A DNA stretch of 64,000 nucleotides. Origin: Candidatus Hadarchaeum sp. (GTDB lineage Archaea; Hadarchaeota; Hadarchaeia; Hadarchaeales; Hadarchaeaceae). Below, one piece after another: positions 19,171-53,410 of this stretch. Location: positions 64,001-128,000 of the forward strand of contig NZ_JAVZIN010000001.1 of assembly GCF_038871235.1 (NCBI RefSeq), read 5' to 3'. The position numbers were made by a program, and so were the translations under genes. Below the pieces are notes generated by a model that worked only from the letters and a program-made list of their open reading frames with translations, was not told the DNA's origin and searched no databases. Numbering within the stretch: the stretch's first letter is position 1; each line of letters starts with the position of its first letter.

Positions 19171-19284
19171 ACCGACACCAAAATCGTCCTTCAAGATGTT
19201 GTGTTCAGCTTAAATATTGCTTTCGGTGGGGTTTAAAAACACACACCAGGGCCATGAGACGGTAAATCGGGCCCTGGGTCAAAA

Positions 19285-19383
19285 TGGCGCCCTTCGGCAG
19301 AGCTATTGCTCCTTGGCCGGGATTTGAACCCGGGGCGGAGCCTCGACAGGGCTCCATGTTAGACCGGGCTACACCACCAGGGC
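19285..19383 (-). tRNA. tRNA-Asp(GTC) with 21-nt intron at 68/69 in the acceptor stem
   Basis: GCCCTGG...GAGCC-CT-GTC-GA-GGCTC...GGTTCAAATCCCGGCCA[intron]GGGCGCCA; splicing restores CCAGGGC-G-CCA. Confidence 0.9.
19293..19313 (-). other. tRNA-Asp intron 68/69 (AGGAGCAATAGCTCTGCCGAA)
   Basis: strict hBHBh': CC/GG, CGGC/GCCG, bulges CA^A and AA^G, inner GGAGC/GCTCT. Confidence 0.88.
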
Positions 19384-19537
19384 CCAAACTCACTAAATAA
19401 TGTCTCGGTTTAAGACGCTTATGTCAGGTAGAGGTCCGCGGAAGTAAATACCCAACCAGCTGGCCCGCGCTCTTTTGGTGCTAAACTCACGAGTAACTCA
19501 CCATATGGTAAACCTTGACAAAAGAACTAAAATCAAC

Positions 19538-19659
19538 GGTTGGCAGCGAACCGGGCTTCCCTTTGGCTTGCGCACAAAAGTACAACCCGATACGCAGGCG
19601 AGCTTGACTTCCGGGATCTGACGAGACCGGGTATTTCCTCGCCGCTATGGCCGCCAACC
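19538..19659 (-). rRNA. rrf: 5S rRNA
   Basis: GGTTGGCGGCCATAGCGGCGAGGAAATACCCGGTCTCGTCAGATCCCGGAAGTCAAGC...GCTGCCAACC, about 122 nt with paired ends. Confidence 0.92.
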
Positions 19660-19696
19660 GAAATTATTGTTGTCCACTCAGTTTTAAAAGCTTGTG

Positions 19697-19833
19697 TGGT
19701 CCCGCGGGGGAGAGTTTCAGCGGCTTAATCCGCGTTTGAACTCCCGACATTTACCGGAATCCTCTAGATTCTGTCGGTTTCAGCGCGGTTTGGGTCTACA
19801 GCCGACCACTCTACCAGGCTGAGTTACCGCGGG
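19697..19833 (-). tRNA. tRNA-Tyr(GTA) with three introns (37/38, 43/44, 59/60)
   Basis: C1-G72 CCCGCGG/CCGCGGG-A-CCA; GTCGG-CT-GTA-G...; removing 19779-19795, 19751-19772 and 19714-19734 gives a normal cloverleaf. Confidence 0.88.
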
Positions 19834-19941
19834 ACCGTTTAAGAATCTGGAATCTCCGTTATTAAGGTTTAACCTCTGCACTTACGAGTCTCATCTTCAG
19901 AAAAGATTGGTTTATAAAGTAGTGAGGAGACCTCATAGACG

Positions 19942-20838
19942 ATGTCAACCGAATTGGCCCAAAAAGGAGACGCTGCGCGGCGCAGGTTTTTCAAACCCAT
20001 GATCGCTGTTCTGATGGTCGTCGTGATTCTTCTGGTGACCGCCCCATCGATTGCCCAAGCTAAATCAAAGAGCACTGCTGCGGTAAAAGTTTATCAAGAA
20101 CGTGATGGCGTAACTAGGTTCGAGGAATATACCCCGCTCTCATCCCAACTGGGCGTTCCACCAGGATTTTTCTACAAGGCCAATGTTTACGCTGTTAACT
20201 TCAAGGGAGGAATTGTTTTAATCGATTGCGGCGCCGAGGATCTTTACTCCGATCTCATGGTGGCAATCAACAAAAAGTTACCCAGTAGACCAATTCTAGC
20301 CGTGCTGCTGACGCATGGACATGCCGATCATGCCGGAGCCGGACACTATTTCATAGACGCTGGAATCCCAGTTTACGCGTCCTTCGCGGATTCATATCTG
20401 ATTCAGATGGGGATGAACTTCCCGGGAGTGCCGATCGACTTTACCTATACTGGCTACACGCCGACCCAGCTGCTCTATGGAGGCGAACATCTTTTTGGTC
20501 TAAACGTGATCCCGACTCCCGGGCACACTTATGGATGTCTAAGTTTTCTGGAAGTGGAAACTAAATTACTTTTCAGCGGCGATGTCACGATATCCTATCC
20601 GGGTGACGATGTGGCACCTGAGGACATGACTTTTGAACTCGAATACATGACCTTGCAAGCAACCGATGACACAAGTTTGGAGATGCAGTTGAATTCTCTC
20701 AACTTACTTCTTGAGCTAACGGGCGACAGGCAAGTCAAAGCGATTATGCCGGGCCACAACCAAACTTATTACGGCAAACACGTCGTTGATTACCTTAAGA
20801 ACTCAATTGAAATGGTATCACAAGAGCTGGCCAATTAA
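19942..20838 (+). CDS. exported metallo-beta-lactamase-fold hydrolase
   Basis: THGHADH, TPGHT, FSGD, MPGH; N-terminal RRRFFK plus hydrophobic stretch. Confidence 0.85.
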   Translation: MSTELAQKGDAARRRFFKPMIAVLMVVVILLVTAPSIAQAKSKSTAAVKVYQERDGVTRFEEYTPLSSQLGVPPGFFYKANVYAVNFKGGIVLIDCGAEDLYSDLMVAINKKLPSRPILAVLLTHGHADHAGAGHYFIDAGIPVYASFADSYLIQMGMNFPGVPIDFTYTGYTPTQLLYGGEHLFGLNVIPTPGHTYGCLSFLEVETKLLFSGDVTISYPGDDVAPEDMTFELEYMTLQATDDTSLEMQLNSLNLLLELTGDRQVKAIMPGHNQTYYGKHVVDYLKNSIEMVSQELAN

Positions 20839-20845
20839 TCCTTAG

Positions 20846-21277
20846 TTAGCGCCTGAGTCGCTTGTGCTCGAGCATGATGCAGCGGTCCATGACGACCTCG
20901 AGTCCGGCTTTTTCGGCCATCTCAGCTGCCGCCTCGTTGGCGATGCCCAGTTGCATCCAGACACCCCTGACTTTGCCGTGCCTTCTTCTCAGCTCAACTG
21001 CTTGTGCCACGATTGGAGGAACATCGTCCGATGGCCGGAAGATATCGACCAGCTCTATCTCCTTCTGCAGCTGCTCAGGCACGTCCAAAAGGCTCGGGTA
21101 ACTCCTTTCACCAAGTATCTCCTCGGCCGATGGATTTACCGGAACTATGCGGTAGCCGTGACCCTTCAGGTAGGCTCCAACCTTGTGGCCATATTTTAAG
21201 GGGTCCTTTGACATTCCCACTACTGCGATCACCTTAGCGCTCAAAAGTGACCTTAACTTTTCATCACTTACGGCCAT
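20846..21277 (-). CDS. CoA-binding protein (YccU-like)
   Basis: IAVVGMS, VPVNP, VDIFRP, WMQLG, DRCI. Confidence 0.9.
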   Translation of the reverse strand: MAVSDEKLRSLLSAKVIAVVGMSKDPLKYGHKVGAYLKGHGYRIVPVNPSAEEILGERSYPSLLDVPEQLQKEIELVDIFRPSDDVPPIVAQAVELRRRHGKVRGVWMQLGIANEAAAEMAEKAGLEVVMDRCIMLEHKRLRR

Positions 21278-21296
21278 TTACCTCGTTACCTCGGAA

Positions 21297-22037
21297 TCAG
21301 GCATACATCTTCTCTGGCTCGGTGGCAGTGGCCTTCTCGTAGTTCTCCGCGATCTCCCTCAGCTTCTCCCGAATCTCATTGGCACCCGCGATCAATTCGG
21401 CGGTGTCAATTTTCAGCCCGTGGGTTCTGTTCAGCGCCTCGATCAGCACCGCGGCACCTTCGGGATCAGGAATGGTAGCCATCGCTGGGGTGAGGATGGC
21501 CGTTCCTTCTATTTTTCTCGTCAGGCATTCGCTGAGTATAGCACCGGCAATTCCGTAGATGATGCCCTTTCGAAGCAGATTGATTCCCCGATCCTTGAAG
21601 TGTTCGCACTTGCCCAGCTCGGTCACGCAGAAGGGCTGGCGATCCGTAGGTAATCCCGGCACCGGTATGCCCTCAAGAACCAGAATTTCTTTGGTGTCAT
21701 GCTTTTCGGCCCAATCGAGAAGTGCCGAAGATATTGAGTAGAGCCCCTCCTCTTTCAGTGGAATCTCGCAGATAACCACACAGAGGTTGTCCTTTTTGCT
21801 CGCGTGGATCCTAAAAGGATGCCTCAACTTTTCCCCAACAAATATCGCCACCGGAGGCAGGTGTTTAGATTTGATATAAGCCACCTCTTCCATTTTCAGC
21901 TTAGTTATTATCTGATCCACGGCAATTGAGCCCACCAAACCAGCTCCGACAAAACCGGCGATAATCAGCGGGTTCTTCAGGCCCAGATCTTTAACCTCTA
22001 CTATCTCAACTTCCGCCGCGTTTGATCCCCTTGTCAT
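21297..22037 (-). CDS. PAC2 proteasome assembly chaperone family protein
   Basis: GFVGAGLVGSIA, LPPVA, PDPEGA, C-terminal HbYX-like MYA. Confidence 0.88.
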   Translation of the reverse strand: MTRGSNAAEVEIVEVKDLGLKNPLIIAGFVGAGLVGSIAVDQIITKLKMEEVAYIKSKHLPPVAIFVGEKLRHPFRIHASKKDNLCVVICEIPLKEEGLYSISSALLDWAEKHDTKEILVLEGIPVPGLPTDRQPFCVTELGKCEHFKDRGINLLRKGIIYGIAGAILSECLTRKIEGTAILTPAMATIPDPEGAAVLIEALNRTHGLKIDTAELIAGANEIREKLREIAENYEKATATEPEKMYA

Positions 22038-22083
22038 GGATATCCCAAATCAATTTTCGCCGCCAATATTAAAGGGCCTCAGA

Positions 22084-23205
22084 TCAACCAATGAACTCAT
22101 GAAGCCTGCGGATCGCTTTCAACTTTTCCTCATGCCCGCACTTAGCCGCTTCAATGGCTCCTTCCAGGATCTCGGTTGTTTCTTGGTAGGTCTTCCTGTC
22201 CACAGGAAATGGAACACCGTCCTTACCGCCGTGGGCAAAGGAATATCTAATCGGATCCCGCCAAGACGGGGGTTTTCCGTAGATCAAGGTTGAAACCAGA
22301 GCTAGGGCCCTAATCGCTTTAGGTCCAATTCCGGAGATGGCTATTAACTCCTCATAGTTCTCCGGTTGGATTTCATAGGCGCGCTGCAGGGCGGCGATGG
22401 TCCGCTTGGGCAGCTCGGTGATTCTATGGCTGCGGGGCATCACGAGTCTCATGGTCCGCTCTTCCTTGCCCACAAAATCATCCAATGAGCGCTGCTCGAA
22501 CTCGCGAATTTCGGCCAAAATCCTTTTTGGACCATCGCGTACTAGATCCACGCTTGTCCTCCTTGCCTCCTCACTATCCCGAGCAGTCATATCCAGCGCT
22601 ACCTCCTCGGCACGTTCACCAATTATTCCAGAATGGGGCTCCTCCACAAAGCTTCTCAATCCCTCGGAAAGCCAGTGATATCGCCGCGCAAAGTTTTCGT
22701 TCATCCCCTGCTGAACCACGGCCCAATTTCCGTTCTCATCGACGAAAAAAGCGTGGTGGTAAAGCTGATAACCATCCTGAACGCAGGCGTTGTCCACCTT
22801 TGCGGCCATCCTGCTGGCATATTTGAGCCGCTCCGTCTTTGCCGTGGTGAATGAGAAGATATCCGTCAATCCTTCAATTTCCTGTGGCACCAATTTTGAC
22901 ACTTTTCCCTTGCCACCACAGACAGCTATTCCCAGCTCCTCGGGCATTAGTGCTTCTTTCAGGGCGCCGGTGAGCGTCGTGGTCAGACCTGAGGAGTGGA
23001 AATCAAAACCCACGATACAACCAAGTGACTGGAAGAAGAATGGGTCCGCCATCCTCTGCAAAAATTCCTCCGTGCCGTGTTCCAGCACAATGGCCTCAAC
23101 TATTGCACCCGATAATTTAACCATGCGCCGGAATAGCCAAGGGGGGCAAGCCCCATAATGCAGAGGTAGTTCCGCGGTTCCGGTTCTTTTCATTTCAACA
23201 CCCAA
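22084..23205 (-). CDS. DUF763 family protein
   Basis: LPLHYG, DFHSSGLTT, ARRYHW, FAHGGKDGVPFPV. Confidence 0.9.
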   Translation of the reverse strand: MGVEMKRTGTAELPLHYGACPPWLFRRMVKLSGAIVEAIVLEHGTEEFLQRMADPFFFQSLGCIVGFDFHSSGLTTTLTGALKEALMPEELGIAVCGGKGKVSKLVPQEIEGLTDIFSFTTAKTERLKYASRMAAKVDNACVQDGYQLYHHAFFVDENGNWAVVQQGMNENFARRYHWLSEGLRSFVEEPHSGIIGERAEEVALDMTARDSEEARRTSVDLVRDGPKRILAEIREFEQRSLDDFVGKEERTMRLVMPRSHRITELPKRTIAALQRAYEIQPENYEELIAISGIGPKAIRALALVSTLIYGKPPSWRDPIRYSFAHGGKDGVPFPVDRKTYQETTEILEGAIEAAKCGHEEKLKAIRRLHEFIG

Positions 23206-23334
23206 TCATTTTCATGGGTGGAAACTGCACGCTTTTTCACTATCCTTTATCTTGGTCTGTTTTTTTATTTTCGATGGTGTTTGGGAAAAAGAATGCTGTG
23301 ATTGTCTATAACCTAGTTACAACTAAGGCAAGAT

Positions 23335-23348
23335 AAAAAAACAAAAAA
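23335..23348 (-). terminator. U-rich archaeal terminator
   Basis: TTTTTTGTTTTTTT on the minus strand 14 nt after the stop of the 71-aa ORF. Confidence 0.55.
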
Positions 23349-23362
23349 GCAGGGGGGTGGAG

Positions 23363-23578
23363 TCACTTTAACAAATGATATCCCGCCGCCTTTTCTCTCG
23401 CCACGCGCTTGGCAAAGCCTTTCGCGACGAGCTCCATCAGCGCGTTGTTCACCATACCCTTGGGTAGGTGCGCGGTTCGCATCACATCGTCCGCTGTTTT
23501 CAGCACCTCAGGGCTTGTCGCGCCTAGCTTTTTAAGCGCATCGTAGACCTTCTGGGCATTGGGTGTCAATTCGGCCAT
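23363..23578 (-). CDS. small basic winged-helix-like protein
   Basis: strong GAGGTGATC RBS; NALMELVAKGFAKR helix pattern. Confidence 0.75.
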   Translation of the reverse strand: MAELTPNAQKVYDALKKLGATSPEVLKTADDVMRTAHLPKGMVNNALMELVAKGFAKRVAREKAAGYHLLK

Positions 23579-23678
23579 ATGATCACCTCATTTTCTGCTA
23601 TTCTGTCACCGATTATCTTAAAAACGCTTACTGTTGCGGTCTCCAGTCACAAAAGACGGGTTTTGAATACCACCTCGC

Positions 23679-24530
23679 TCAAAGGGCCTCCCTTATCTTT
23701 AGCGTCATATCTATTGAATGCGAGCGCATTGTCATGTAGCTAGTCGATATTATTTCAACGCCAGTTGCCGCATAATCGGCGATATTTGCAGGAGTTATCC
23801 CCCCAGAGGCTTCCAAGGAGACTCTCTTTCTCAAATCTGCCTTTTCAAGCAACGTGATAGTACGTTTTATCTGGTCCGGTGTCATGTTATCCAGCATCAC
23901 AATATCGGCACCGGCACTCGCCGCTTCCAGCACCTCCTCTGGCGTGGTGATTTCAATCTCGATCTTTCCGAACTTGCCTACCTCCTTAAACTTCTTCACC
24001 GCGGCAGCGATGGAACCCACCAGCTTGAGATGGTTGTCCTTAATGAGAACTTGGTCGCTCAAGTTGAAACGATGAGGATGGCCGCCAGCAATCTCCACTG
24101 CGCGTTTATCAAAATACTTTAACAGTGGGGCCGTTTTCCTCGTCGCCGCGATTATCACCTTGGGATTTTTTTCTCTCGCCAACTCGATCAGCTCACGCGT
24201 TGCCGTGGCTATGCCGCTCATTCTCATCATCAAATTCAGCGCCACTCTTTCGGCGGCCAGTATCTTTCTCGCCGGGCCGTCCAATCTCATGATCACTTCA
24301 TCGGGACGGATGCTCTCTCCATCACGACGCAAAATTTTCACCCTAACGCCAACTTCCCTGAAGACCATCGCGGCCTCCTTCACACCGGCCAGCACCCCGT
24401 CCTGTTTTGAGATAATTTCAGCCTTAGCGCGGAGCTTCGGATCAATCAGAACGTTTGAGGTCACATCTCCGCTTCCTAGGTCCTCGGCCAGCATCTCCCG
24501 GATTTTCTTTCTAAGATAGTTTTCAGTCAC
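23679..24530 (-). CDS. nadC: nicotinate-nucleotide pyrophosphorylase (carboxylating)
   Basis: ATRKTAP, LIKDNH, VMLDN, EASGGI. Confidence 0.95.
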   Translation of the reverse strand: MTENYLRKKIREMLAEDLGSGDVTSNVLIDPKLRAKAEIISKQDGVLAGVKEAAMVFREVGVRVKILRRDGESIRPDEVIMRLDGPARKILAAERVALNLMMRMSGIATATRELIELAREKNPKVIIAATRKTAPLLKYFDKRAVEIAGGHPHRFNLSDQVLIKDNHLKLVGSIAAAVKKFKEVGKFGKIEIEITTPEEVLEAASAGADIVMLDNMTPDQIKRTITLLEKADLRKRVSLEASGGITPANIADYAATGVEIISTSYMTMRSHSIDMTLKIREAL

Positions 24531-25455
24531 GGGTAGCCCTCCCTGAGAGCTCCAACATCCTTCCCGTCGCTCGTCGAGCCCTTGCGGCGATGGCCGGCGG
24601 AACTGTCACCACGTGTTTCATATCCCGCAATGACTCGTATAGCTTTTGCAGGTTGTGTTTTTTCATCTGCTGACAGACAGCAGTCCCCAGCGCGGGTATA
24701 AACTCCTTTTCTGGGAACTCCCGCCTGAGGCGCTCCACCATACCTACTTCGGTGGTGATGATGAACCTTTTCGCTGGGGAGGCCTTGGCTCTGATCACCA
24801 TCTGGCTGGTGCTGCACATGTGGCTGGCCAGCTTCTGTACCTCGGGGTCGCATTCAGGGTGAACCAGTACCTCGGCGTCCGGAAACCTCTCCTTTTTGAG
24901 GAGGATGTCAGCGGGAGTGAACATTCTGTGAACATAACAGTAGCCGAAATCTGGTATTGGAATAATCTTCTTGTCAGTTCTCTGCTGAACATACCAGGCC
25001 AAGTTTTTGTCAGGACCAAAAATGATTTCCTCCTCATCGAGAGCATTGACTATCTGAGCCGCGTTAGCTGAGGTGCAGACAACATCGGCCTCGGCGCGAG
25101 TTTCGGCGAGGGTGTTGATGTAAAGAACCACCGCCGCCCCGGGATACTTCAACCTGACCTCGCGGACCGTTTCAGGGGGCAGCTGGGCGGCCATCGGGCA
25201 TCGGGCATCTGGGTCCGGGATCAGAATTGTTTTATCCGGGTTCAGCATCGCCGCGGTCTGGGCCATGAAATCAACTCCGGCAAAGAGCACTACTTTCTCC
25301 TTTACCTTAGCAGAATACCTTGCTAAATCAAGCGAGTCCCCGATGTAGTCCGCAAGTAGCTGTATCTCCTCCCGCTGATAATTGTGGGCGAGGATGATGG
25401 CCTCACGCTCGGCCTTCAGCCTCAAAATTTCGTCACGAAGTTGCTCTTGCTGCAT
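24523..25455 (-). CDS. nadA: quinolinate synthase A
   Basis: AHNYQ, GDSL, CPMA, CTSANA, CYVH, HPEC. Confidence 0.95.
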   Translation of the reverse strand: MQQEQLRDEILRLKAEREAIILAHNYQREEIQLLADYIGDSLDLARYSAKVKEKVVLFAGVDFMAQTAAMLNPDKTILIPDPDARCPMAAQLPPETVREVRLKYPGAAVVLYINTLAETRAEADVVCTSANAAQIVNALDEEEIIFGPDKNLAWYVQQRTDKKIIPIPDFGYCYVHRMFTPADILLKKERFPDAEVLVHPECDPEVQKLASHMCSTSQMVIRAKASPAKRFIITTEVGMVERLRREFPEKEFIPALGTAVCQQMKKHNLQKLYESLRDMKHVVTVPPAIAARARRATGRMLELSGRATRD

Positions 25456-25492
25456 ACTGACACTAAGAAAACAAGTGGGCAGAGGTTATTAA

Positions 25493-26314
25493 CTATGTGC
25501 CAACTTGAACTGTCTCGCTTAGATTTTTTAAAGTTCGTGCTACTGAAAGTGCTGCCAGATAGCTGGTTCGCGGTGACTCCGGAAAGGGCACATTAAGCGA
25601 CCTAGTCAAGAGTTCGCCTGCCTCGCCGCGGATTCTAATCTCGTGGATATTTCTTTTGATTCGCGGGTCGGCAACAATCCTCACTAATGTTCTATCAAAG
25701 CCGACACCGGCCAAGCTCAAGGTGGCGGCCACGTTGACGCTGGCTGGGAAGAACTTCACAGCCTCACGGGCTGTTCCACTAAAGATCACCTTTGGTCCCC
25801 TGAGTCCGCTTAGCTTTATTCCTTTTCTTTTGAGATATTCGTTATTCTTAAAAGCAGAAGGAGGTTTTCGCGTTGTCAGCCTCACCTCTTTAATTTCCCG
25901 TAGCGACGAAGCCTTTGCTCCGTCAATTCCCACCACGGCGCCGGAGGGGATGTAGATCTTCCTGCCCAAGTTCATGGCTTCGGTTCGCAGACTGTTGAGG
26001 AGGTCCTCACCAGAAAGAGCGCCCACACTAAGGATGATGAGGTCTTTTCCGGACCTGAGGACGTCCAGCGAATATTGTCTGACCGCCTCCTGAGAAGCGG
26101 CCTCGACAACTATGTCGACATCCTCGTCCTCGTAAATTTCGGCAACCCTGCGCAAAATTCTGGGCTTGTTTTTTAAGCCGGAAACCAGCCTCTTGCAGCG
26201 CTCCAGCTTCAAGTCATAGACCCAGCCCAGCTCCACCCCACCTGCTTCACCTGAATCAATCAACTGTGCCAATGCCGCGCCAATTGCGCCACAACCTATC
26301 AGGCCAACCTTCAT
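25493..26314 (-). CDS. nadX: L-aspartate dehydrogenase
   Basis: GCGAIG, VEAASQ, PSGA, TTRKPP, NVAATL, TSYLAALS; start taken at MKVGL. Confidence 0.92.
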   Translation of the reverse strand: MKVGLIGCGAIGAALAQLIDSGEAGGVELGWVYDLKLERCKRLVSGLKNKPRILRRVAEIYEDEDVDIVVEAASQEAVRQYSLDVLRSGKDLIILSVGALSGEDLLNSLRTEAMNLGRKIYIPSGAVVGIDGAKASSLREIKEVRLTTRKPPSAFKNNEYLKRKGIKLSGLRGPKVIFSGTAREAVKFFPASVNVAATLSLAGVGFDRTLVRIVADPRIKRNIHEIRIRGEAGELLTRSLNVPFPESPRTSYLAALSVARTLKNLSETVQVGT

Positions 26315-26374
26315 CTCATCCACCAAAGTTTTGAGCTCATAGGTCATTTTTCCATTGAGGGCATCCTAGTTACT

Positions 26375-27208: not shown

Positions 27209-27242
27209 CCAGCTAAATTGCCTTTTTCCCGCGAGCGGGTCC

Positions 27243-28736: not shown

Positions 28737-28772
28737 TTTAACTAGTCGCTAAGATGTTACGTTGCTCTTTTT

Positions 28773-29129: not shown

Positions 29130-29229
29130 TTATAAATGCACACGTGTGCAAAAATATCTGCATCAGAAATTATCGGGGTAAAAGTTTTAGGTTCCGCAAC
29201 ACGATTTTATAACAAACTTTGGTGAGCTG

Positions 29230-43446: not shown

Positions 43447-43493
43447 CCACTATCTTTTACGCTTCAGATTATTAAACCCGATTTCATCAAAAG

Positions 43494-44198: not shown

Positions 44199-44715
44199 CC
44201 ACGTCCACCTGAAATTTTCCCATCAAATCAACGAGCAAACGGGGCAGCTCCTCCCGGTTCTCCTCTGTGACCTCAACAACCTTGAAGTCGATGCCGTCCA
44301 GCTCACGTAGCAGCCTGTCCTTAAGAGTGTCTTGGACTACGAGGATGACATTATCATGCTGTTTGAAGGTCTCCAGTGCATTATCGAAGCCCCTTCCCAT
44401 CAGCTCCAGCTTGCCGAACTCGTCAATTATCATCAGATCGCCTTTCTTTCCCAGCGCCCTCTTACCAAAATCGATTCCTTCCGGACTGAAGACAAAGTGA
44501 CAGTGTGGTATCCCTCCCGGAATCTCGCGGGAACCGGTCACGGCGGCAAGAAGCTTTTTATCACCGCTGGCGATGTCCTCGACCACGAGTTCATCACCCT
44601 GCTGTGAAGTTATCGTGCCAGCACAGATGAGCCTCATCTCAGCAGCGATCTCGATGATCTTCCGGCAAATCGTTGTCTTGCCAACTCCCTTCTCTCCAGC
44701 TAAGATAACCCTCAC
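44185..44715 (-). CDS. THEP1/DUF2478-like NTPase
   Basis: GEKGVGKTT, IIDEFGKLE. Confidence 0.78.
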   Translation of the reverse strand: MRVILAGEKGVGKTTICRKIIEIAAEMRLICAGTITSQQGDELVVEDIASGDKKLLAAVTGSREIPGGIPHCHFVFSPEGIDFGKRALGKKGDLMIIDEFGKLELMGRGFDNALETFKQHDNVILVVQDTLKDRLLRELDGIDFKVVEVTEENREELPRLLVDLMGKFQVDVDAHR

Positions 44716-44719
44716 CGTC

Positions 44720-45508: not shown

Positions 45509-46479
45509 CAGCTTTCACCCCCTCTTGAAAGCAGCAGGAGAAAGACCGGCGCTCCGCAAAGCGATGTGATTATGCCCAGTGGAATTTCACCGGCGGTAAT
45601 GGCTCTGGCGATGGTGTCAAAGACAATCATGAGCGTGGCGCCCAAGATCAGAGAAGCCGGGACAATCCGGCTGTTATCGGCGCCGAATATTTTCCGAGAC
45701 ATGTGTGGTACGATCAGGCCCACCCAAGCGATAACTCCGGCCACCGAGGTGACCGCCGCAGCGGCCAGTACGGCAAAAACAACCACCACGGCGCGTAGCT
45801 TCCCCGGATCGGAACCCAGTGAAAAGGTGACGTCATCCCTCAAGGTGAGCAGATTAATCCTCCAGCGAATTATCAGAAGCCCTGTAATTCCACAAAGAGT
45901 CAGCGGTAGCATGTAAATCAGGTCATTCCACCGCACCCCGGAGAGACCACCCAGCAGCCAGAAGGTCAGTGCCGGAAGCTGGTTCAGCGGATCGGCCATG
46001 GTCTTGATAACCCCGACCCCGCCGGAAAACATCGCCGAGACCGCAATCCCAGCCAGAACCAGCCTGAGGATTTTTCCACCGTATTTTATTGACGAAGACA
46101 GCGTGTAGGCGACCAGAAGCGCCAGCAACCCGAACACGGTTGACGACGCCTCGATGACGAACGGCGAGTTTACCAAAAACAGGATGGCCAGCGCCGCACC
46201 GAAGGCCGAACCCTGGCTCACGCCAAGCAGGCTTGGCTCCACCAGCGGATTTTTAAACGCCGACTGCAAAGCCGCGCCCGCCGCCGAGAGCGCCATTCCC
46301 AGCAGAACCGCGGCGAGTATTCTCGGCAATCTAATGTTGAAAATTATTTCCGCGCCCAAGCCACTAGAGATCAAATCCCGAATATCCGCTGCGTATCTGC
46401 CCGCGAATAGGGAAACAAAGAAAACCGCCAGCAAAACGACCGTTATCGCCAGAAAGCGGAAGTGGTGCCTCATGTCCAT
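45508..46479 (-). CDS. FecCD/BtuC-family ABC permease
   Basis: IRLPRI, NPLVEP, VGLIVPH, EIPLGI. Confidence 0.92.
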   Translation of the reverse strand: MDMRHHFRFLAITVVLLAVFFVSLFAGRYAADIRDLISSGLGAEIIFNIRLPRILAAVLLGMALSAAGAALQSAFKNPLVEPSLLGVSQGSAFGAALAILFLVNSPFVIEASSTVFGLLALLVAYTLSSSIKYGGKILRLVLAGIAVSAMFSGGVGVIKTMADPLNQLPALTFWLLGGLSGVRWNDLIYMLPLTLCGITGLLIIRWRINLLTLRDDVTFSLGSDPGKLRAVVVVFAVLAAAAVTSVAGVIAWVGLIVPHMSRKIFGADNSRIVPASLILGATLMIVFDTIARAITAGEIPLGIITSLCGAPVFLLLLSRGGES

Positions 46480-46481
46480 CT

Positions 46482-47603
46482 CTACAAATCCCCGGTGATC
46501 TGCTGCATGATCTCACCGGCCCCTACCTCATCGAGACCATACATTTCCCTGTAGAACTGCCTCACCTCAGCCGTCAGATCCAGCTCCGTGAAGATGGTAG
46601 GCTGGATTTTCTTGGCCATCCAAAGCTGTCCCAGTATCCACCGGGAGTTTGGAGTATCCCAGCTTCCAATCGCGATCAAATGGGAATCATCCGGTACCGC
46701 ATAAACCCGGCCCTCCTTAACCGCGGCCACATCTCTCCAGAGTGGATCATGGAGGATGTTTTCCTTGACGCTGGCTGGAGAAGGATTATCAGAATAGGTA
46801 ACGATGAAGATGATCTCCGGATTCCACTGTGCAATCTGTTCGAATGACACTGTGTTCCATCCCCCGCCGCCGAGTTCTTTGGACAGCGGGTAACCTCCGG
46901 CCACTTCAATCATCATTGTCTGCAGCCAGCGAGATCCCGGCGCGTTGAACGAGATGGTTCCTCCCTTGACGCTGTAAAATAGGAAGAGAGTTCGAGGTCT
47001 ATTCGACAGCGGTAAGGAGGAGGTCTTGGAGAGAACGTAGCGGTATTTCTCCTCATAGTAGCCAGCGATTTTGTTGGCTCGAGGCTCTTCACCAAACAAC
47101 TTCCCCATCAGCCTGACATCGCGGAGATAGCTGTCGATGTTCTCCAGATCAACATAGACCACGCTGATGCCGAGGGACTCTAGGGACTCAGCGACCTGGA
47201 GTTTTACCACCGTCTTGAATATCACCAGATCAGGGTTCAGCTTGGCCAGCTCCTCGACGTTAGGGGCATCAGAGCCGGCGCCCAGATCACTGCTCACCGT
47301 CTTGGCGTCAATTGATGGATCGACCGCACGGAAAAGCGGCACGCTGGCGGTCCGCTGGTCCAGTCCATACAACACACTTCTGGCACTGGAAAACATGTAG
47401 GCCACGCTGGTGATGGGAAAGGCGCTCTTGCCGGTGATGATGACACGATCAACGGGAAGCTCGACCTGAACCGTCCTGCCGAGAGCATCGACAACGGAAA
47501 TTGGCCCCGTTAACGGGGGATAGGATGTCTGTCCGATAACCAGATAGGCGGCCACCACCACGACCAGTATCAGGACAATCGGAGAGATAAGATTCTTTTT
47601 CAT
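46482..47603 (-). CDS. iron/cobalamin ABC substrate-binding protein
   Basis: DALGR.V, NVEELAKLNPD, VSFEQI..WNP, AVKEGRVY. Confidence 0.9.
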   Translation of the reverse strand: MKKNLISPIVLILVVVVAAYLVIGQTSYPPLTGPISVVDALGRTVQVELPVDRVIITGKSAFPITSVAYMFSSARSVLYGLDQRTASVPLFRAVDPSIDAKTVSSDLGAGSDAPNVEELAKLNPDLVIFKTVVKLQVAESLESLGISVVYVDLENIDSYLRDVRLMGKLFGEEPRANKIAGYYEEKYRYVLSKTSSLPLSNRPRTLFLFYSVKGGTISFNAPGSRWLQTMMIEVAGGYPLSKELGGGGWNTVSFEQIAQWNPEIIFIVTYSDNPSPASVKENILHDPLWRDVAAVKEGRVYAVPDDSHLIAIGSWDTPNSRWILGQLWMAKKIQPTIFTELDLTAEVRQFYREMYGLDEVGAGEIMQQITGDL

Positions 47604-47716
47604 TCCCTTACACCAAGTTCCTTAATTTTCAAACACTACTTTTTGTTAAACAATAATAGTATAAAAAAAGATATGTTAATTAAAAAAGGTTTACAGCTGG
47701 AGCACTCAAAATCAGA

Positions 47717-47829
47717 TGGTGGGCCCGGAGGGCTTCGAACCCTCGACCACCCGGTTTCCCCGGTCAACCTATGAGCCTCGCCCAACTTCTTCAGTTGTCG
47801 GGCGCTCCACCAGGCTGAGCTACGGGCCC
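47717..47829 (-). tRNA. tRNA-CAT (probably Ile2, agmatidine) with introns at 30/31 and 37/38
   Basis: GGGCCCG/CGGGCCC-A-CCA; removing 47777-47798 and 47756-47769 gives CCCGG-CT-CAT-AA-CCGGG; Ile vs Met identity inferred from the GGGCCC acceptor. Confidence 0.87.
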
Positions 47830-47946
47830 ACAAAAAGCCATATGCAATCACTGCTAAAAAAAGTTTGCAAATCTCTAGCCCTGCTGAAAAAGTAGTCGTA
47901 CCTGTTATGTAGCCATACTACATATTTATAGACATCGCCACATAGG

Positions 47947-48660
47947 TTGATGGTAAAAAGCCTGGTGGGCCGGATGAAAGAAGTGGTCAAGGTTGATGAG
48001 GTAACCAAGATCTACCGCATGGGTGAGGTTGACCTGCGGGCGCTGGACGGAGTGAGCTTAAAGATCATGCCCTCAGAAAATCTATCGATAATCGGTCCCT
48101 CGGGATCGGGAAAGTCCACCCTGCTGCACCTGATGGGCTGCCTGGACAGGCCGACCAGTGGCAGGATCTACATCGACGGTGTTGACACCTCGCAGCTCAA
48201 TGGCACTAAGCTGGCCGAGATCAGAAGACACAAAATTGGCTTCGTCTTCCAGTTCTTTTACCTCATCCCGACGCTGAACGCCTTGGAAAATGTGGAACTG
48301 CCCATGATGTTCGCGGGTGTGAATGAAAGCGAGAGAAAAAAACGCGCCGCCGAGCTTCTGGAGCTGGTAAACCTGAAGGATCGGATGAAACACCGGCCCT
48401 CCGAGCTGAGCGGAGGCGAGAGGCAGAGAGTGGCCATAGCCAGAGCCTTGGCAAATAACCCCAAGATCGTGCTTGCCGACGAGCCCACCGGCAACCTCGA
48501 CTCCCGTTCGGGCAGAGAAATCATTGACCTATTAAGAAGGTTGAACGAGGAGAAGGGGGTAACGCTGGTGATCGTGACCCATGATCCTTATATTGCCAGC
48601 ACTATGAAGAGAACAATATATTTAAAGGATGGTCGAATCGTAAAGGAGGAGAGGAGATAA
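47947..48660 (+). CDS. LolD/MacB-type ABC ATPase
   Basis: GPSGSGKST, GFVFQ, LSGGERQR, ADEPTGNLD. Confidence 0.92.
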   Translation: MMVKSLVGRMKEVVKVDEVTKIYRMGEVDLRALDGVSLKIMPSENLSIIGPSGSGKSTLLHLMGCLDRPTSGRIYIDGVDTSQLNGTKLAEIRRHKIGFVFQFFYLIPTLNALENVELPMMFAGVNESERKKRAAELLELVNLKDRMKHRPSELSGGERQRVAIARALANNPKIVLADEPTGNLDSRSGREIIDLLRRLNEEKGVTLVIVTHDPYIASTMKRTIYLKDGRIVKEERR

Positions 48661-48662
48661 TT

Positions 48663-49868
48663 ATGAAAAAAGCGATGTTGATGCTAACGGTCTCAGCTCT
48701 GGTCGCTCTGGCCATCATAGGGGGCGCGGGGTCGGCCTCGGCAGCTGATGGTTCGCTCAACTTGGGCTGGTCACTGCTCGATAACTACATCAGGCCGGGC
48801 GGAGAAACCACCCTGATAATTTCCATTCAGAACGCCACGACCTCAAAAATTTACCACGTGGAAATCAGCTTTAAAACCGGGGATGAGCTTTCGCTTGACC
48901 CCTCCGATTTTTACCTCTATAGCATTTCTCCGATGACTTCCCAGCTGACCTCGTTCAAGATCAAGGCAGGCGAAAATGCACCGCCCAAGGTCACCTATGT
49001 GGAAATCACGGCAAAATATCACGTCGGCAACGTCAGCGCCGAGGAAAACGAGCTCAAAATCTGGGTACCTGTAGTCATCAGGTCCGCACCGCTGCTGAAG
49101 ATAGAGAAGATCGCGTTCGACAAAGATCCAGTCAGCCCAGGCAGTGTTGTAACCGTTTCCTTTGAGGTGAAGAACTATGGTGATGGTCCAGCCAAGGATC
49201 TCATAGTTTCGCTGGACCAAGCTGCGGGTACTTTTGTCTCTGATCTGAACGAAAAATACGTGGGGGGGGTGCCGGTAAACGGCTCAGCAAAAATCTCCTT
49301 CAGGCTGAACATCAACCAGAACCTGAGCGCGGGAGTCTACTCGATCCCAATACTTTTGAGTTACTTGGATGAGACCAAGACACAGATTTTCACCGGCCGA
49401 GAATTTGCCGGGCTGAGGGTCTACGGCAGCATCAACCTGATAACCACGCTGAACTCACAGGACATGGTGGCGGCCGGTACCAGTGGCTCCATGGAAATAA
49501 AGATCGCCAACGCCGGGACGATGGAGGCTCAGTTCCTGCAGCTGAACTTTATCGGCTCCTCGGTCTTGGAAGATGTTTCGCCCACTAGCATCTATATCGG
49601 GCGCCTGAAATCCGACGACTACGACACCGAAAAAATATCCTTCCGGGTCAGCGGAAACGCGACCAAGGGGGTCTATCCTGTGAAGCTGGAGTTGGTCTAC
49701 CAAGACCCGTTTGGCAAGGAGTTCACCGAGGCCGAAACGGTGTACCTAACGGTGTTGTCTCAGGAGGACCTTAATAAAAATGTTGAAATTCCCCTCTGGC
49801 AGCTGGCCATCATTGGTCTAATTATTGTCATCGTCGTCTACTCTTTCTGGCGTAAGAGGAGAAAATGA
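48663..49868 (+). CDS. COG1361 S-layer-domain protein
   Basis: signal peptide, repeated Ig-like N.G...A motifs, GVY.I.L..Y, C-terminal TM + RKRRK. Confidence 0.8.
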   Translation: MKKAMLMLTVSALVALAIIGGAGSASAADGSLNLGWSLLDNYIRPGGETTLIISIQNATTSKIYHVEISFKTGDELSLDPSDFYLYSISPMTSQLTSFKIKAGENAPPKVTYVEITAKYHVGNVSAEENELKIWVPVVIRSAPLLKIEKIAFDKDPVSPGSVVTVSFEVKNYGDGPAKDLIVSLDQAAGTFVSDLNEKYVGGVPVNGSAKISFRLNINQNLSAGVYSIPILLSYLDETKTQIFTGREFAGLRVYGSINLITTLNSQDMVAAGTSGSMEIKIANAGTMEAQFLQLNFIGSSVLEDVSPTSIYIGRLKSDDYDTEKISFRVSGNATKGVYPVKLELVYQDPFGKEFTEAETVYLTVLSQEDLNKNVEIPLWQLAIIGLIIVIVVYSFWRKRRK

Positions 49869-49871
49869 TGT

Positions 49872-51110
49872 ATGCTGAAGGGTTCCTTTATCCTGATCTT
49901 CAGGAACTTGACGCAGCGGAAGCTGAGGAGTTCCCTGACGACGCTGGGCGTCATCATCGGAATAGCGGCGATTGTCGGCATGGTCTCGGCCACTCAGGGA
50001 ATCAGCAATTCCATCGGTGAACAGCTGGAAAAGCTACAGGGGAACAGAATCCTTATCACCTCGAGTAGCCGGGGTGGACTGTTCTCCCCCGGCACCGCCG
50101 GAGGATTGACGGAAAAGGATGTTGAAATTATTCAGAGGATCAACGGGGTCAGTGTCGCCTACGGCCAGCTTCAGACCTCGGCCCTCGTCATTTACGGGGG
50201 CGAAGGGCAGGGTCTGACCATCGTCGGGCTCTCGCCCAGCGATTTTGAAAGGCTGGACACCCTTGGCGTGGAGGTGGGGCGGTATCTCAAGGACTCCGAT
50301 CGCTACGCCACCGTCATCGGCAATTCCGTGGCCTACGAAAAGTTCCAGAAGGAGGTTGGCCTGAGGAAGAAGCTGGTAATCAAGGACACCGAGTTTCAAG
50401 TCGTCGGCATCATGAACAAGGCTGGCGGCGCCCTGATGACCACCGACTCCACCGTTTATCTCCCCAAAGAGGCGATGAGGGAGGTATTCAACTTGCCCGA
50501 GGACCGTGTGGACTCAATTGTCGTGGGGGTAAAATCAGACGCGAACATCAACGAAGTGGCGGAGAGGATCTCCGAGGCCCTGCGCCGCTCCCACCGAGTC
50601 ACCAAGAACAACGAAGACTTTACCGTGATAACGCCCGACTACGTCAAGAACATCGTGGGGCAGATAACCGGGCTGCTGTCCATCCTGCTGGGCGGCATCG
50701 CCGGCATCTCCCTGATCGTGGGGACCATCGGCATCACCAACATCATGTTTGTCACCGTCTCCGAGAGGACGCGGGAAATTGGCGTGATGAAAGCGCTGGG
50801 ATCGACCAACCGCGATATCCTGATGCTGTTCGTCTTGGAGTCCGGCATCATCAGCCTCATCGGTGGCGTCATCGGTGTGTTTGTAGGGCTAGGGCTTGGG
50901 GAGGGTCTGATATTCCTCTCCCGCATGGCCATCAGCGGCACCACCATTGCCAACGGTGGTTTGAGTTCACTTCGTGCCAGTATAGCCATCATTCCAGAAC
51001 TCATTGCCGGTGCCATTGCCCTTTCCTTCTTCGTGGGTGTTATCGCAGGATTTCTACCGGCCAGAAAGGCGGCCAACCTGAACCCCATCGAGGCCCTCCG
51101 CTACGAGTGA
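49872..51110 (+). CDS. MacB/FtsX-family ABC permease
   Basis: RS.LT.LGVIIGI, GITNIM.VTV.ERTREIG.MKALG, NPIEALRYE. Confidence 0.92.
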   Translation: MLKGSFILIFRNLTQRKLRSSLTTLGVIIGIAAIVGMVSATQGISNSIGEQLEKLQGNRILITSSSRGGLFSPGTAGGLTEKDVEIIQRINGVSVAYGQLQTSALVIYGGEGQGLTIVGLSPSDFERLDTLGVEVGRYLKDSDRYATVIGNSVAYEKFQKEVGLRKKLVIKDTEFQVVGIMNKAGGALMTTDSTVYLPKEAMREVFNLPEDRVDSIVVGVKSDANINEVAERISEALRRSHRVTKNNEDFTVITPDYVKNIVGQITGLLSILLGGIAGISLIVGTIGITNIMFVTVSERTREIGVMKALGSTNRDILMLFVLESGIISLIGGVIGVFVGLGLGEGLIFLSRMAISGTTIANGGLSSLRASIAIIPELIAGAIALSFFVGVIAGFLPARKAANLNPIEALRYE

Positions 51111-51170
51111 ACCTTTATGCCGCTGGCTCAAAGTTATTAGTTAAAAAATCTAACTGAGCGTGGTGCTGGC

Positions 51171-52148
51171 TTGGGGATAAAGATACTGACTCACGGCGAC
51201 ACCGATGGCATTTGCGCCGCCGCACTGGCCCGATACCGGTTTCCCGATGCCGAGATTTGGTTCACCAGACCCATTAGGTTGCTAAGGGATCTGAACACCA
51301 TCGAGCCGGGCACGGCGGTGATGATCTTTGACGTGGCCATCGATGAAGCCAACAAGGATCAGATCTTCCAGCGGATGCGGGAGCTGGCCCAAAAGGATGA
51401 GGTTCTCTACGCGGATCATCACCCCCTCCCACCCGGAACTCTGAAAAGGGATTTCCCGGTGACGCAGTTTGCCCTTGATACTGGGGCAAGTTCTTCCGAG
51501 CTGGCCTTCAAGCTGCTCATTCAGGACCCCAAATCTGACATGGACCGCGTCGCCCTCTGGGGAGCCATCGCCGACTACTGCTGGGACACCGAGTTCGTTC
51601 GGGGAAGGATGGACAAATACGACCGGAGAACCATCTACATGGAGGCGGGCCTGCTCACCCAGGGTCTGGGGGAAGCTGCCGGAGACTATCACTTCAAGAG
51701 GGATATCGTGATCAAGCTCGCCCAAGGAATACCGCCCACGGAGATGCCCGACCTGGTCGATCGAGCCCTGAAAGCTACCAAGAGGGAGTGGGACATCTAC
51801 GAATATGTGAAGAAGCACGTTGTTGTTGAGGACAATATCGCCATCGTCTACGATCTCCCAGTAGGCAGCTTGGGAAAGGCTGCGCTTTACGCCTTGGGCA
51901 TCACCGGAGTTGACGTCGGGATCTGCACCCGGGTAAAGAAGGACGATGTGGATATCAGCATCAGGCGCAGGACCGGGAGCAAGATAGACCTAAACGAGAT
52001 GCTCCGCCACATCACGGCTAGGGTCGGTGGATCTGGCGGTGGGCATGAAGGGGCTGCCGGGGCCACCGTCCCAGTAAACCTGCTGGAGACATTTCTGGAG
52101 ACGATAAAAAGGGAGGTTTCTCCCATCAGTGGTTTGGGAACCGTTTAA
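51171..52148 (+). CDS. DHH/DHHA1 phosphoesterase (RecJ-like)
   Basis: HGDTDG, DHH, GGSGGGH..AAG. Confidence 0.88.
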   Translation: MGIKILTHGDTDGICAAALARYRFPDAEIWFTRPIRLLRDLNTIEPGTAVMIFDVAIDEANKDQIFQRMRELAQKDEVLYADHHPLPPGTLKRDFPVTQFALDTGASSSELAFKLLIQDPKSDMDRVALWGAIADYCWDTEFVRGRMDKYDRRTIYMEAGLLTQGLGEAAGDYHFKRDIVIKLAQGIPPTEMPDLVDRALKATKREWDIYEYVKKHVVVEDNIAIVYDLPVGSLGKAALYALGITGVDVGICTRVKKDDVDISIRRRTGSKIDLNEMLRHITARVGGSGGGHEGAAGATVPVNLLETFLETIKREVSPISGLGTV

Positions 52149-52155
52149 ACTCGCT

Positions 52156-53151
52156 TCAAAAAAGTTCGACCCACTTTCCCTTGCCCAGTTTTTTTGCCTT
52201 CTGATAAACGAACCAGTCGGTGGCGATGTCCTGTATGGCGAGGCCGGTGGAATCGAACACGGTAATTTCATCGCGGGAAGTTCGACCTGGTTTTTTCTTG
52301 GTCACTATTTCACCGAGGTCTGCATAGATATCGGACCTCGAGATCAAGCCTTTCGCCAGCGGGACGTTAACCTCTCCCCCATGAATCGCCTGCTCCACAT
52401 CGTCGACGACCACCTTGGCGTGCAGGAGGATGGCCGGATCGAGCTCCTGTTTTCCCGGGGCATCGGCACCGATGGCGTTAATATGCGTACCGCTCCTGAC
52501 ATACTCGTTCATCAGGATGGGCTTCGTCGAGGGGGTGGTGGTTACTATAATGTCGGCTACCTCAACGGTTTCCTTCACCCTCCGAAAGACCTTCGTCTCC
52601 ACCCCCAGCTCCTCGCGCATCTCAGCGGCAAAGCGCGAGGCATTTTTGGCATCGATATCGTTGACCCTGACCTCCTCTATCTTCAGCACCTCGTTCAGCC
52701 CCAGCAGCTGGGTCCTCGCCTGAACTCCGGCGCCGAGCATCGCAACGACCTTGGAATCTCGCCGAGCCAAATACTTTGCCGCGACCGCCCCGCCGGCTCC
52801 GGTTCTCAGGTTGGTTATCAGTGTTCCATCCATGATGGTGAGGGGGGCGCCCGTCTTGGGGTCAAGCAGTAGTATCGTGGCCATGACTGTGGGCAACCGG
52901 TATTTTTTTGGATTTCTGGGGTGAACGTTAACGATCTTGACACCTGCGGCGCCCATGTCCTCCAAGTAAGCGGGCATGACCCTGAAGTCGCCCCCGTACT
53001 TTTCAAAATTCACGTAGGACTTGGGCGGCATCTGGACCTTGCCCAGCCCCTTTGCCATGAAGGCCTTCTCGACCGCGTCTATAACTTCGCGCATCGAGAT
53101 TAACCCCTCGATCTCCTTCTTTGACAAAAGCAGGATTTTCATCTTTGGCAC
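52156..53151 (-). CDS. ala: alanine dehydrogenase (ornithine cyclodeaminase/mu-crystallin family)
   Basis: MPPKSY, GDFRVMPAY, KIVNVH, RTGA, DSTGLAIQD. Confidence 0.88.
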   Translation of the reverse strand: MPKMKILLLSKKEIEGLISMREVIDAVEKAFMAKGLGKVQMPPKSYVNFEKYGGDFRVMPAYLEDMGAAGVKIVNVHPRNPKKYRLPTVMATILLLDPKTGAPLTIMDGTLITNLRTGAGGAVAAKYLARRDSKVVAMLGAGVQARTQLLGLNEVLKIEEVRVNDIDAKNASRFAAEMREELGVETKVFRRVKETVEVADIIVTTTPSTKPILMNEYVRSGTHINAIGADAPGKQELDPAILLHAKVVVDDVEQAIHGGEVNVPLAKGLISRSDIYADLGEIVTKKKPGRTSRDEITVFDSTGLAIQDIATDWFVYQKAKKLGKGKWVELF

Positions 53152-53226
53152 CGATTACTGCTACCGGGACTAGGTTTTAACCGTTGCGCCTTAGCGCCCT
53201 ATGGTAAGCGATCAAGGTTAGGAAAA

Positions 53227-53378
53227 TGGCGCCGGGGAGAGGACTCGAACCTCTGACCGCTCGGTTGCTGTGCCCAGACGTGTCGTCTTTTTTTATTGAG
53301 GTTCGTTCTTCATTCACATCCGGTTTAACAGCCGAGCACTCTACCTACTGAGCTGTCGGGCCGCAACGGAACCCCGGC
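53227..53378 (-). tRNA. tRNA-Asn(GTT) with introns at 8/9 (16 nt) and 37/38 (60 nt)
   Basis: GCCGGGG-T[53355-53370]AGCTCAG...CTCGG-CT-GTT-A[53266-53325]A-CCGAG...GGTTCGAGTCCTCT-CCCCGGC-G-CCA. Confidence 0.88.
53355..53370 (-). other. tRNA-Asn intron 8/9 (TCCGTTGCGGCCCGAC)
   Basis: strict BHB: GC/GC, CGGG/CCCG, bulges GT^T and AC^A, inner CCG/CGG. Confidence 0.85.
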
Positions 53379-53410
53379 ATTTCCCCGGCACTTCTTACTT
53401 TTCCACCGAA

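Follow-up and report, generated by a model that had tools for sequence, protein, structure and literature searches.

Archaeal tRNA introns are thought to be restricted to sites at which the surrounding exon permits the bulge-helix-bulge structure (BHB), and two tRNA genes in a 64,000-nucleotide stretch of a Hadarchaeota (Hadesarchaea) genome raise the question of how an intron can be removed when this motif has to be built from a strand of the acceptor stem itself. The whole stretch, referred to here as the window (G000:C1:64001-128000), belongs to a genome of 1.2 Mb in 16 contigs, and the DNA sequencing runs that contain the locus are labelled as hot-spring metagenomes. The two genes encode tRNA-Asn and tRNA-Asp, both on the minus strand, and each is accompanied by a short flanking sequence, in the leader of the former and in the trailer of the latter, that stands in for the acceptor strand borrowed by the BHB and is complementary to the strand left without a partner. 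In our view these flanks are probably surrogate acceptor strands that are transcribed and act in cis within the pre-tRNA, where they free the strand needed by the BHB and tether the short terminal exon. The elements are real and strictly linked to acceptor-consuming introns in five tRNA species, and we classify them as a new accessory cis element within BHB splicing and not as a new kind of system.

The tRNA-Asn gene is formed by three exons with the CCA encoded (exon 1, nt 1-8, 53371..53378; exon 2, nt 9-37, 53326..53354; exon 3, nt 38-76, 53227..53265), which are separated by a 16-nt intron at position 8/9 (53355..53370) and a 60-nt intron at the canonical position 37/38 (53266..53325). G1 is located at 53378, the 5' strand GCCGGGG at 53378-53372, U8 at 53371 and A9 at 53354. 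The match to the Rfam tRNA model sets in at A9, with model position 9, and the last base of the CCA lies at 53227. When BHB motifs are read by the published definition of a 4-bp central helix and two 3-nt bulges, the first intron makes use of acceptor nt 1-6. Nucleotides 3-6 (CGGG) form the central helix with CCCG of the intron, the bulges are G7-U8-T and A-C-A9, and the motif is completed by an inner helix of 3 bp (CCG:CGG) and an outer helix of 2 bp (C2:G10 and G1:C11). Upstream of the gene, at 53382..53391, the leader carries the surrogate strand GTGCCGGGGA, which repeats the 5' strand and pairs over 10 bp, one of them a G:T wobble, with the orphaned nt 65-74 of the 3' strand (53238-53229 in exon 3). 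The minimum-energy fold of the precursor contains exactly this helix, and the duplex energy of -22.7 kcal/mol is equalled by one of 200 shuffled leaders. The BHB is conserved as well. Its pairs are kept in 97% of the 135 cells compared over 15 orthologs vs 20-42% in slid controls, the four central pairs are kept in 100% of the cells, and the inner helix shows compensatory changes, with C:G replaced by T:A in 4 of the 15 orthologs.

The tRNA-Asp gene consists of exon 1 (nt 1-68, 19314..19383, with G1 at 19383), a 21-nt intron at position 68/69 (19293..19313) and exon 2 (nt 69-76, GGGCGCCA, 19285..19292), in which the CCA occupies 19287-19285. Here the BHB uses nt 61-68 and consumes both the T stem and the 3' acceptor strand: nt 63-66 (CGGC) pair with GCCG of the intron in the central helix, and the inner helix has 5 bp. 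Beyond the CCA, at 19267..19277, the trailer carries the surrogate strand CCAGGGCCCGA, which pairs over 11 bp (one wobble) with TTGGGCCCTGG (19377..19387), that is, with leader nt -4 to -1 together with nt 1-7 of the 5' strand. The minimum-energy fold of the precursor contains this helix too, and none of 200 shuffles reaches its duplex energy of -24.0 kcal/mol. After splicing in silico the gene is called tRNA-Asp with 7/7 acceptor pairs. A sequence-only reading of the window had claimed both arrangements, namely an 8/9 BHB in tRNA-Asn that takes nt 1-6 and leaves the 3' strand to a leader copy of the 5' strand, and a 68/69 BHB in tRNA-Asp that takes the 3' strand and leaves leader and 5' strand to the trailer; both are borne out by these pairings.

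The two genes stand alone in their genome. BHB splicing followed by ARAGORN resolved just 27 of 44 T-arm anchors and was replaced by T-arm anchoring with direct reading, which led to the recognition of 40 tRNA genes, 38 through intact T arms and 2 with T-loop introns. The intron mode of ARAGORN put several introns at wrong places, and it is precisely the tRNA genes with acceptor-consuming introns that ARAGORN and the Rfam tRNA model call wrongly or cut short. Among the 40, tRNA-Asn and tRNA-Asp are the only genes whose intron BHB consumes an acceptor strand, the introns of the others all falling between about nt 14 and nt 62. Only in tRNA-Asn does the 3' end have a second complement upstream, and only in tRNA-Asp is there a strong complement in the trailer; the next real tRNA in the trailer comparison, at -19.0 kcal/mol, shows leader-trailer pairing and not an acceptor-strand copy. 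The earlier statement that no copies flank the other tRNA genes of the window stands, although its count of eight genes in the window was wrong. There are nine, the ninth being a tRNA-Tyr(GTA) gene (19697-19833, minus strand) that was missed by both ARAGORN and Rfam and was found through the sequence of a relative. One of its three introns sits at 37/38, another in the variable region and the third in the T loop, and with neither an acceptor-proximal intron nor a flank copy the gene serves as an internal control.

The association extends to the relatives, which include a family of 46 genomes in 12 genera. Of 41 tRNA-Asn loci 39 could be parsed, 17 with the 8/9 intron and 22 without it. A leader complement to the 3' end is present in all 17 intron-bearing genes, with energies of -19.3 to -27.6 kcal/mol that are matched by 0-2 of 200 shuffled leaders, and in none of the 22 intron-less genes (-3.7 to -12.0 kcal/mol), and both states are found within each of the genera g1, g2, g6, g11 and g12. 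Likewise, tRNA-Tyr genes with a 9/10 intron carry the leader copy GGTCCCGCG(G) in 5/5 cases, compared with 0/21 intron-less ones. The same design was found independently in tRNA-Lys(CTT) of 5 genomes and in 9 sequences of tRNA-Met(CAT), whose 9/10 introns are accompanied by a leader copy that abuts G1 or sits 1-2 nt away. The central helix of the BHB was found in 16/16 of the Lys, Met and Tyr genes, with an inner helix of 4-6 bp. A search of the relatives with Rfam RF00005, run three genomes at a time, gave weak matches in six other genomes that led to further cases. The co-occurrence of copy and intron that the sequence-only reading had proposed to look for in related genomes is therefore present in four tRNA species with leader elements.

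The leader elements can be separated cleanly from the background. We pooled 226 distinct tRNA genes with intact T arms, from the genome of the window and from the loci of the relatives, and scored each by the duplex energy between the last 16 nt of the leader and nt 65-76; the automatic intron classifier erred twice in each direction, and these four labels were set right manually. An 8/9 or 9/10 intron is present in 35 genes (Asn, Tyr, Lys-CTT and Met-CAT), and every one of them lies at or below -14.2 kcal/mol; the remaining 191 all lie at or above -10.7 kcal/mol. The latter include 21, 68 and 17 genes that share the same three acceptor sequences, and the strongest value among the 68 with the acceptor GGGCCCG is -8.3 kcal/mol. 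Intron-less orthologs of Asn, Asp, Tyr and Lys match the predicted spliced sequence exactly. Among the relatives there is free variation in the spacers (0-4 nt, of many sequences), in the loops of the introns and in the upstream leaders. Fifteen of 19 Asn leader copies are exact 7-nt repeats, and the diverged leader copies (GGGCTTG, GGGTCCG, GCTGGGG) differ by C-to-T changes that retain G:T wobble pairing; in the leader type the 3' target is invariant, so that double changes are impossible. In a fixed register the palindromic GGGCCC copies are assigned wrongly, and a count of surrogate cells made in this way was left out of the statistics. The elements differ from an ordinary extension of the acceptor stem between leader and trailer, in that the surrogate pairs with nt 66-72 and competes with the true strand; ordinary extension does occur in control genes, as GGT before tRNA-Tyr and TGGT before tRNA-Glu. 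Two other interpretations of the upstream copy were rejected. If it were the real exon and the downstream copy belonged to a longer intron, the product would lose U8 or nt 9 in most orthologs, and a second BHB removing the leader would require a GGAA:TTCC pairing that is not conserved.

On the 3' side, the only surrogates found in the survey are those of the Asp 68/69 type. Seventeen Asp orthologs carry the intron, one of which is cut by a contig end, and in all 16 evaluable genes a trailer element lies 5-28 nt past the CCA. The element is strong in 11/16 (-20.0 to -26.7 kcal/mol), compared with -5.9 to -16.3 kcal/mol in 19/20 intron-less Asp genes. The central helix, CGGC paired with GCCG or GCTG, is present in 16/16 orthologs. 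The trailer covaries with leader bases outside the tRNA: the pair between leader position -1 and the trailer is G:C in nine genes, T:A in four and G:T in two, and position -3 shows five pair types. Covariation of the copy, which the sequence-only reading had named as a check on its proposal, is thus found in the trailer type. Judged from the compared sequences, the elements of both types covary or drift in such a way that the pairing is preserved.

The spacing of promoters and the position of T runs make it plausible that the flanks lie inside the primary transcript. Upstream of tRNA-Asn there is a TATA-like box, CTTATGAA (53411..53418, minus strand), whose position is conserved in the orthologs and which may function as the promoter. 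The 3' end of such a box lies 30-32 nt from G1 in 12/17 intron-bearing Asn genes, namely those with the box inside the stretch examined, and 23-28 nt from G1 in 22/22 intron-less ones. Archaeal TATA boxes are usually spaced about 22 nt from the start, so that transcription is predicted to begin no more than about 3 nt from the surrogate's first base. Two species of one genus, G029 and G030, share the same sequence upstream of tRNA-Tyr, and the surrogate of G030 lies exactly at the place of the true 5' strand of G029; the surrogate can therefore be read as the ancestral 5' strand. In the case of tRNA-Asp, the first run of at least five T is located beyond the element, or is absent within 63 nt, in 15/16 genes. 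At least four T precede the element in just 4/16 intron-bearing orthologs, and the T4 run of the window gene is common only to its two closest relatives. A T5 run about +48 to +50 past nt 73 is present in 4/6 intron-bearing Asp genes of the genus, and the T5 run of the window gene (19235..19239, minus strand) is a likely terminator. Three contig sets labelled 'metatranscriptomic' and one DNA set yielded just pieces of tRNAs and 5S rRNA of other organisms, and one 96-nt low-depth contig that spans 19268-19362, a kind of evidence that cannot show transcript ends. Of the processing machinery, an RNase P RNA (198 bits) and one EndA gene of 179 aa are present.

A leader copy at the place of the ancestral 5' strand would also be expected if the copy were a neutral relic, a scar of intron arrival by cassette insertion or mobile-element recombination with no role in processing. 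The ancestral GGT context preserved around it and the exact 7-nt repetition of most Asn copies fit such a history, and so does the report that mobile-element integration leaves tRNA 5' fragments and that a duplicated 5' part accompanies intron gain in tRNA-Thr of Caldiarchaeum, as described in the part of the source available (PMC3293823). The Caldiarchaeum fragment, however, is separated by 1.8 kb or >500 kb, on the far side of a recombinase gene, and the passages available assign it no part in processing (PMC3293823), whereas the surrogate copies are 6-12 nt long, lie 0-4 nt from the gene and are probably inside the transcript. A scar is moreover not expected to vanish whenever the intron is absent, as it does in 191/191 controls. 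The pairing of 7-12 bp persists in 35/35 genes, in four tRNA species, in many genera and outside the family, while spacers, intron loops and upstream leaders have diverged; altered copies keep it through G:T wobbles, and the Asp trailer covaries with leader bases that are outside any duplication. We therefore regard a relic without function as unlikely.

We propose instead that the surrogate takes part in splicing. With an intron at 8/9, 9/10 or 68/69, the BHB recognised by EndA must be built from one acceptor strand, and the partner strand would otherwise either win the borrowed strand back, so that no BHB forms, or stay loose. The surrogate would be a spare copy of the borrowed strand, carried in the leader or trailer and pairing with the orphaned partner. 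In this way it would remove the competitor, so that the BHB conformer is populated, and it would tie the short terminal exon (8-9 nt on the 5' side; 8 nt plus the trailer on the 3' side) to the tRNA body by 7-12 bp throughout the cuts and the ligation. After ligation the real strand would have to displace the surrogate, which would leave with the leader upon RNase P cleavage or with the trailer. The strand exchange, which would have to precede RNase P cleavage, would depend on the tRNA body's tertiary fold or on capture by RNase P. An effect of the elements on cleavage or ligation, as well as the strand exchange and the order of end processing, is what we infer from these structures.

The first of these roles was explored by calculating how probable the four central pairs of the BHB are in the ViennaRNA ensemble. 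For the tRNA-Asn precursors this probability is 0.0015-0.91 with the native 20-nt leader vs 4e-10 to 3e-4 with a 3-nt leader, the latter being lower in 17/17 genes. Shuffled leaders give medians of 2e-6 to 0.07, and the native leader exceeds them in 16/17. In Lys, Met and Tyr the native leader gives a higher probability than no leader in 16/16 cases, by 5-fold to 3e5-fold at 37 C, and a higher one than the median of shuffled leaders in 16/16. Leader-type introns sit outside the acceptor helix, and when no competitor is present, seven G:C-rich acceptor pairs easily beat the 4+2 pairs of the BHB. In the model, the leader-type elements thus shift the equilibrium towards the BHB. The proposal of the sequence-only reading that the flank is a placeholder needed for the BHB to fold agrees with the leader type, in which the native flank has the higher probability in 33/33 comparisons of precursors with and without it, by roughly one to eight orders of magnitude, and does not clearly hold for tRNA-Asp, whose modelled BHB forms without the trailer. 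The role of a tether is accordingly favoured for Asp. Its 3' exon after cutting would be just GGGCGCCA and the trailer, held by up to 11 bp, and the same argument may apply to the 5' exons of 8-9 nt.

The surrogate helix could on the other hand be a lock on the order of processing or a form of quality control, which hides the 3' end (discriminator and CCA) or the 5' end from RNase P, tRNase Z, the CCA-adding enzyme or the synthetase, any help to the BHB being a side effect. Many leader elements do reach nt 73-76, as in TGGCGCCGGGG against CCCCGGCGCCA, the CCA is encoded in 16/16 intron-bearing Asp genes vs 4/20 intron-less ones, and the helix is stable after splicing in the model. By the canonical promoter spacing, however, the upstream TGGC extension may fall outside the transcript, many other non-canonical introns of these genomes have no such element, and the link is specific to those introns whose BHB consumes an acceptor strand, all of which makes a lock as the primary function rather improbable. 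A coincidence, a terminator or promoter hairpin or an integrase attachment-site repeat is very improbable indeed: the trailer element of the window's Asp gene has a second copy further downstream (19253-19244), ahead of the T5 run, with which it could fold into a hairpin, and GGGCCC-type strands are palindromic and GC-rich with a higher background of pairing, but 0/191 controls lie at or below -12 kcal/mol, the 68 controls with the GGGCCCG acceptor are without the element at their strongest value of -8.3 kcal/mol, the hairpin's downstream arm is already missing from the closest relative, and the copies lie 0-4 nt (leader) or 5-28 nt (trailer) from the gene with nothing between, leader copies 0-4 nt apart leaving no place for an integrase-sized insert.

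Several observations nevertheless weigh against the interpretation of the flanks as transcribed surrogate strands. The first concern the sample and the transcript: the loci of the relatives were collected by similarity to particular tRNAs and constitute a non-random sample of genomes that are not independent, and the transcript ends are deduced from the DNA, as no RNA run contains the locus. The window's own Asp gene has a T4 run (19281..19284, minus strand), a possible partial terminator, between the CCA and the element, and termination there would exclude the element from the transcript; in the Asp ortholog of G007 a T5 run occupies this place. Five of the 16 trailer elements are weak (-12.6 to -15.6 kcal/mol) and overlap the range of the controls, and one intron-less Asp gene, that of G040, has a strong trailer complement of -22.9 kcal/mol. 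Other points come from the folding model. The RNAalifold consensus of 15 Asn precursors chooses the ordinary acceptor stem, which can be attributed to the surrogates being out of register in the alignment, and the Asn ortholog of G002 gains nothing over shuffled leaders at 37 C. For Asp, whose intron breaks up the acceptor helix, the model forms the BHB even when no trailer is present; the native trailer raises the BHB probability in just 6/16 genes at 37 C and, mostly by small factors, in 16/16 at 70 C, and for the window's own gene the value at 37 C is 0.75 with the trailer vs 0.86 without it. Finally, after in-silico removal of both introns the surrogate helix is still preferred, the true acceptor stem having a probability of 1e-5 to 0.1 depending on temperature and start site. 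Secondary structure by itself thus does not explain the strand exchange that the mechanism requires.

Among known systems, the closest likeness is to the split and permuted tRNA genes of Nanoarchaeum equitans, Caldivirga, Thermofilum and Cyanidioschyzon, for which the portions of the literature available describe complementary leaders and trailers (PMC4090602, PMC4033280, PMC3218864). As far as those portions go, sequence outside the mature tRNA pairs there to hold the pieces for cutting by EndA and ligation and is then discarded, as we propose for the surrogates, and it is the two flanks, paired to one another, that build the BHB where separate or permuted halves meet. The genes described here, in contrast, are continuous and collinear, and the flank pairs with a mature acceptor strand outside the BHB. 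Hadesarchaea have been reported to possess an alpha4 EndA that carries an additional L3 loop, together with tRNA genes that are heavily disrupted, and the words 'leader' and 'acceptor' are absent from the text of that paper that could be consulted (PMC5829648). In the accessible text of an Asgard census preprint, 'leader' and 'trailer' have zero occurrences. A search of the full-text literature, itself seen in part, retrieved no earlier description of a flank copy standing in for a borrowed acceptor strand, although older papers and supplements outside it may hold such a remark. With respect to the non-canonical archaeal BHB introns of Thermoproteales, Thaumarchaeota, ARMAN and Hadesarchaea, the introns themselves conform to the ordinary BHB type, in which the central helix has 4 bp and each of the two bulges 3 nt. 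The central helix, the bulges with a flanking helix and the canonical spliced product are all present, and cleavage by EndA in vivo is predicted. In attenuators and riboswitch anti-terminators, a third strand decides between two incompatible helices. The surrogates would follow the same third-strand logic by analogy, yet they involve no ligand and no ribosome, the outcome would be an irreversible cutting and joining of RNA, and the element would then be discarded.

If the surrogates are the ancestral 5' strands, their origin may be accounted for by the insertion of a cassette, consisting of a new 5' strand plus intron, behind the ancestral 5' strand whose place the leader copy now occupies. 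A broader proposal, to which we give slightly less than an even chance, is that in archaea generally a BHB intron can settle beside the acceptor stem only in a precursor equipped with a disposable surrogate for the strand it borrows, with a cassette origin and an enforced order of maturation. Were this rule true, the primary transcript would be a leaderless pseudo-tRNA whose acceptor stem uses the ancestral 5' strand, since demoted to leader, and the functional 5' strand, arriving with the intron in the cassette, would take over only after splicing. The exon would be replaced in an enforced order of splicing, strand exchange and RNase P cleavage. The surrogate would represent a built-in RNA chaperone and exon tether, the cis counterpart of the trans-pairing of split tRNAs, and might mark an intermediate stage in evolution from which continuous and split tRNA genes are linked.

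The surrogate-strand interpretation matters because an extra strand of the precursor that is later discarded would be a way round the limit on BHB sites, with which an intron can use the acceptor stem itself. It would explain the existence of introns at 8/9, 9/10 and 68/69, it predicts an obligatory order of maturation, and it suggests routes of interconversion among continuous, intron-bearing and split tRNA genes. Its signature, a second acceptor-strand complement within about 15 nt of the gene, would aid tRNA finders.

Further features were noted around the Asp genes. In the window, a 10-nt copy of the 5' end of tRNA-Asp (GGCCCTGGTG) is located at 19244-19253 on the minus strand, 13 nt past the trailer element, with which it can pair as a hairpin before the T5 run. 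This copy is absent in the closest relative (L033) and is thus probably young or a chance match; a hairpin of the element with 19253-19244 was rejected as a terminator, the second arm being missing in that relative. Just past the tRNA-Asp terminator, the stretch at about 19180-19233 on the minus strand (…AAACCCCACCGAAAGCAATATTTAAGC…GATTTTGGTG…) is near-identical across the genus (also L033-L036, L073 and L074), and from its sequence it looks like the promoter and start of another conserved gene or RNA. The intron-less Asp gene of G040 (L043; G040:C1, ~160054-160129) shows a T5 run right after the CCA, followed by an interrupted complement of about 15 bp to its own leader and 5' strand, which may be a relic of a lost pair of intron and surrogate. 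In the Asp trailers of G006 and G001 (L049 and L053), the interval from the CCA to the element holds a second hairpin, in which trailer bases pair with the discriminator and the CCA and which shows compensatory differences between the two genomes.

The 60-nt intron of tRNA-Asn (53266-53325) is conserved family-wide; its core …GATGAAGAACGAACCTCAAT… is invariant, and its stem shows numerous compensatory changes. Judged by eye it resembles an intron-borne box C/D guide RNA, and a sensitive Rfam search of the tRNA-Asn region gave no family matching the 60-nt intron. Asn genes without the 8/9 intron but with a D-arm intron (L010, L012, L015, L018, L024 and others) have a conserved GGATATTATCC between the TATA box and G1.

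Outside the window, on contig G000:C13 and about 2838 from the minus-strand end, there is a lone T arm with a 3' acceptor strand and no 5' half upstream, identical to those of a tRNA on contig C9. Similar 3' tRNA fragments are found in the relatives L164, L166 and L089, and all of them may be remnants of element integration. In G028, three odd tRNA-like genes (L091, L096 and L097) stand out by acceptor stems that are imperfect and anticodon arms of unusual form. They may be pseudogenes or genes carried by an element, and one of them, L096, adjoins repeated sequence.

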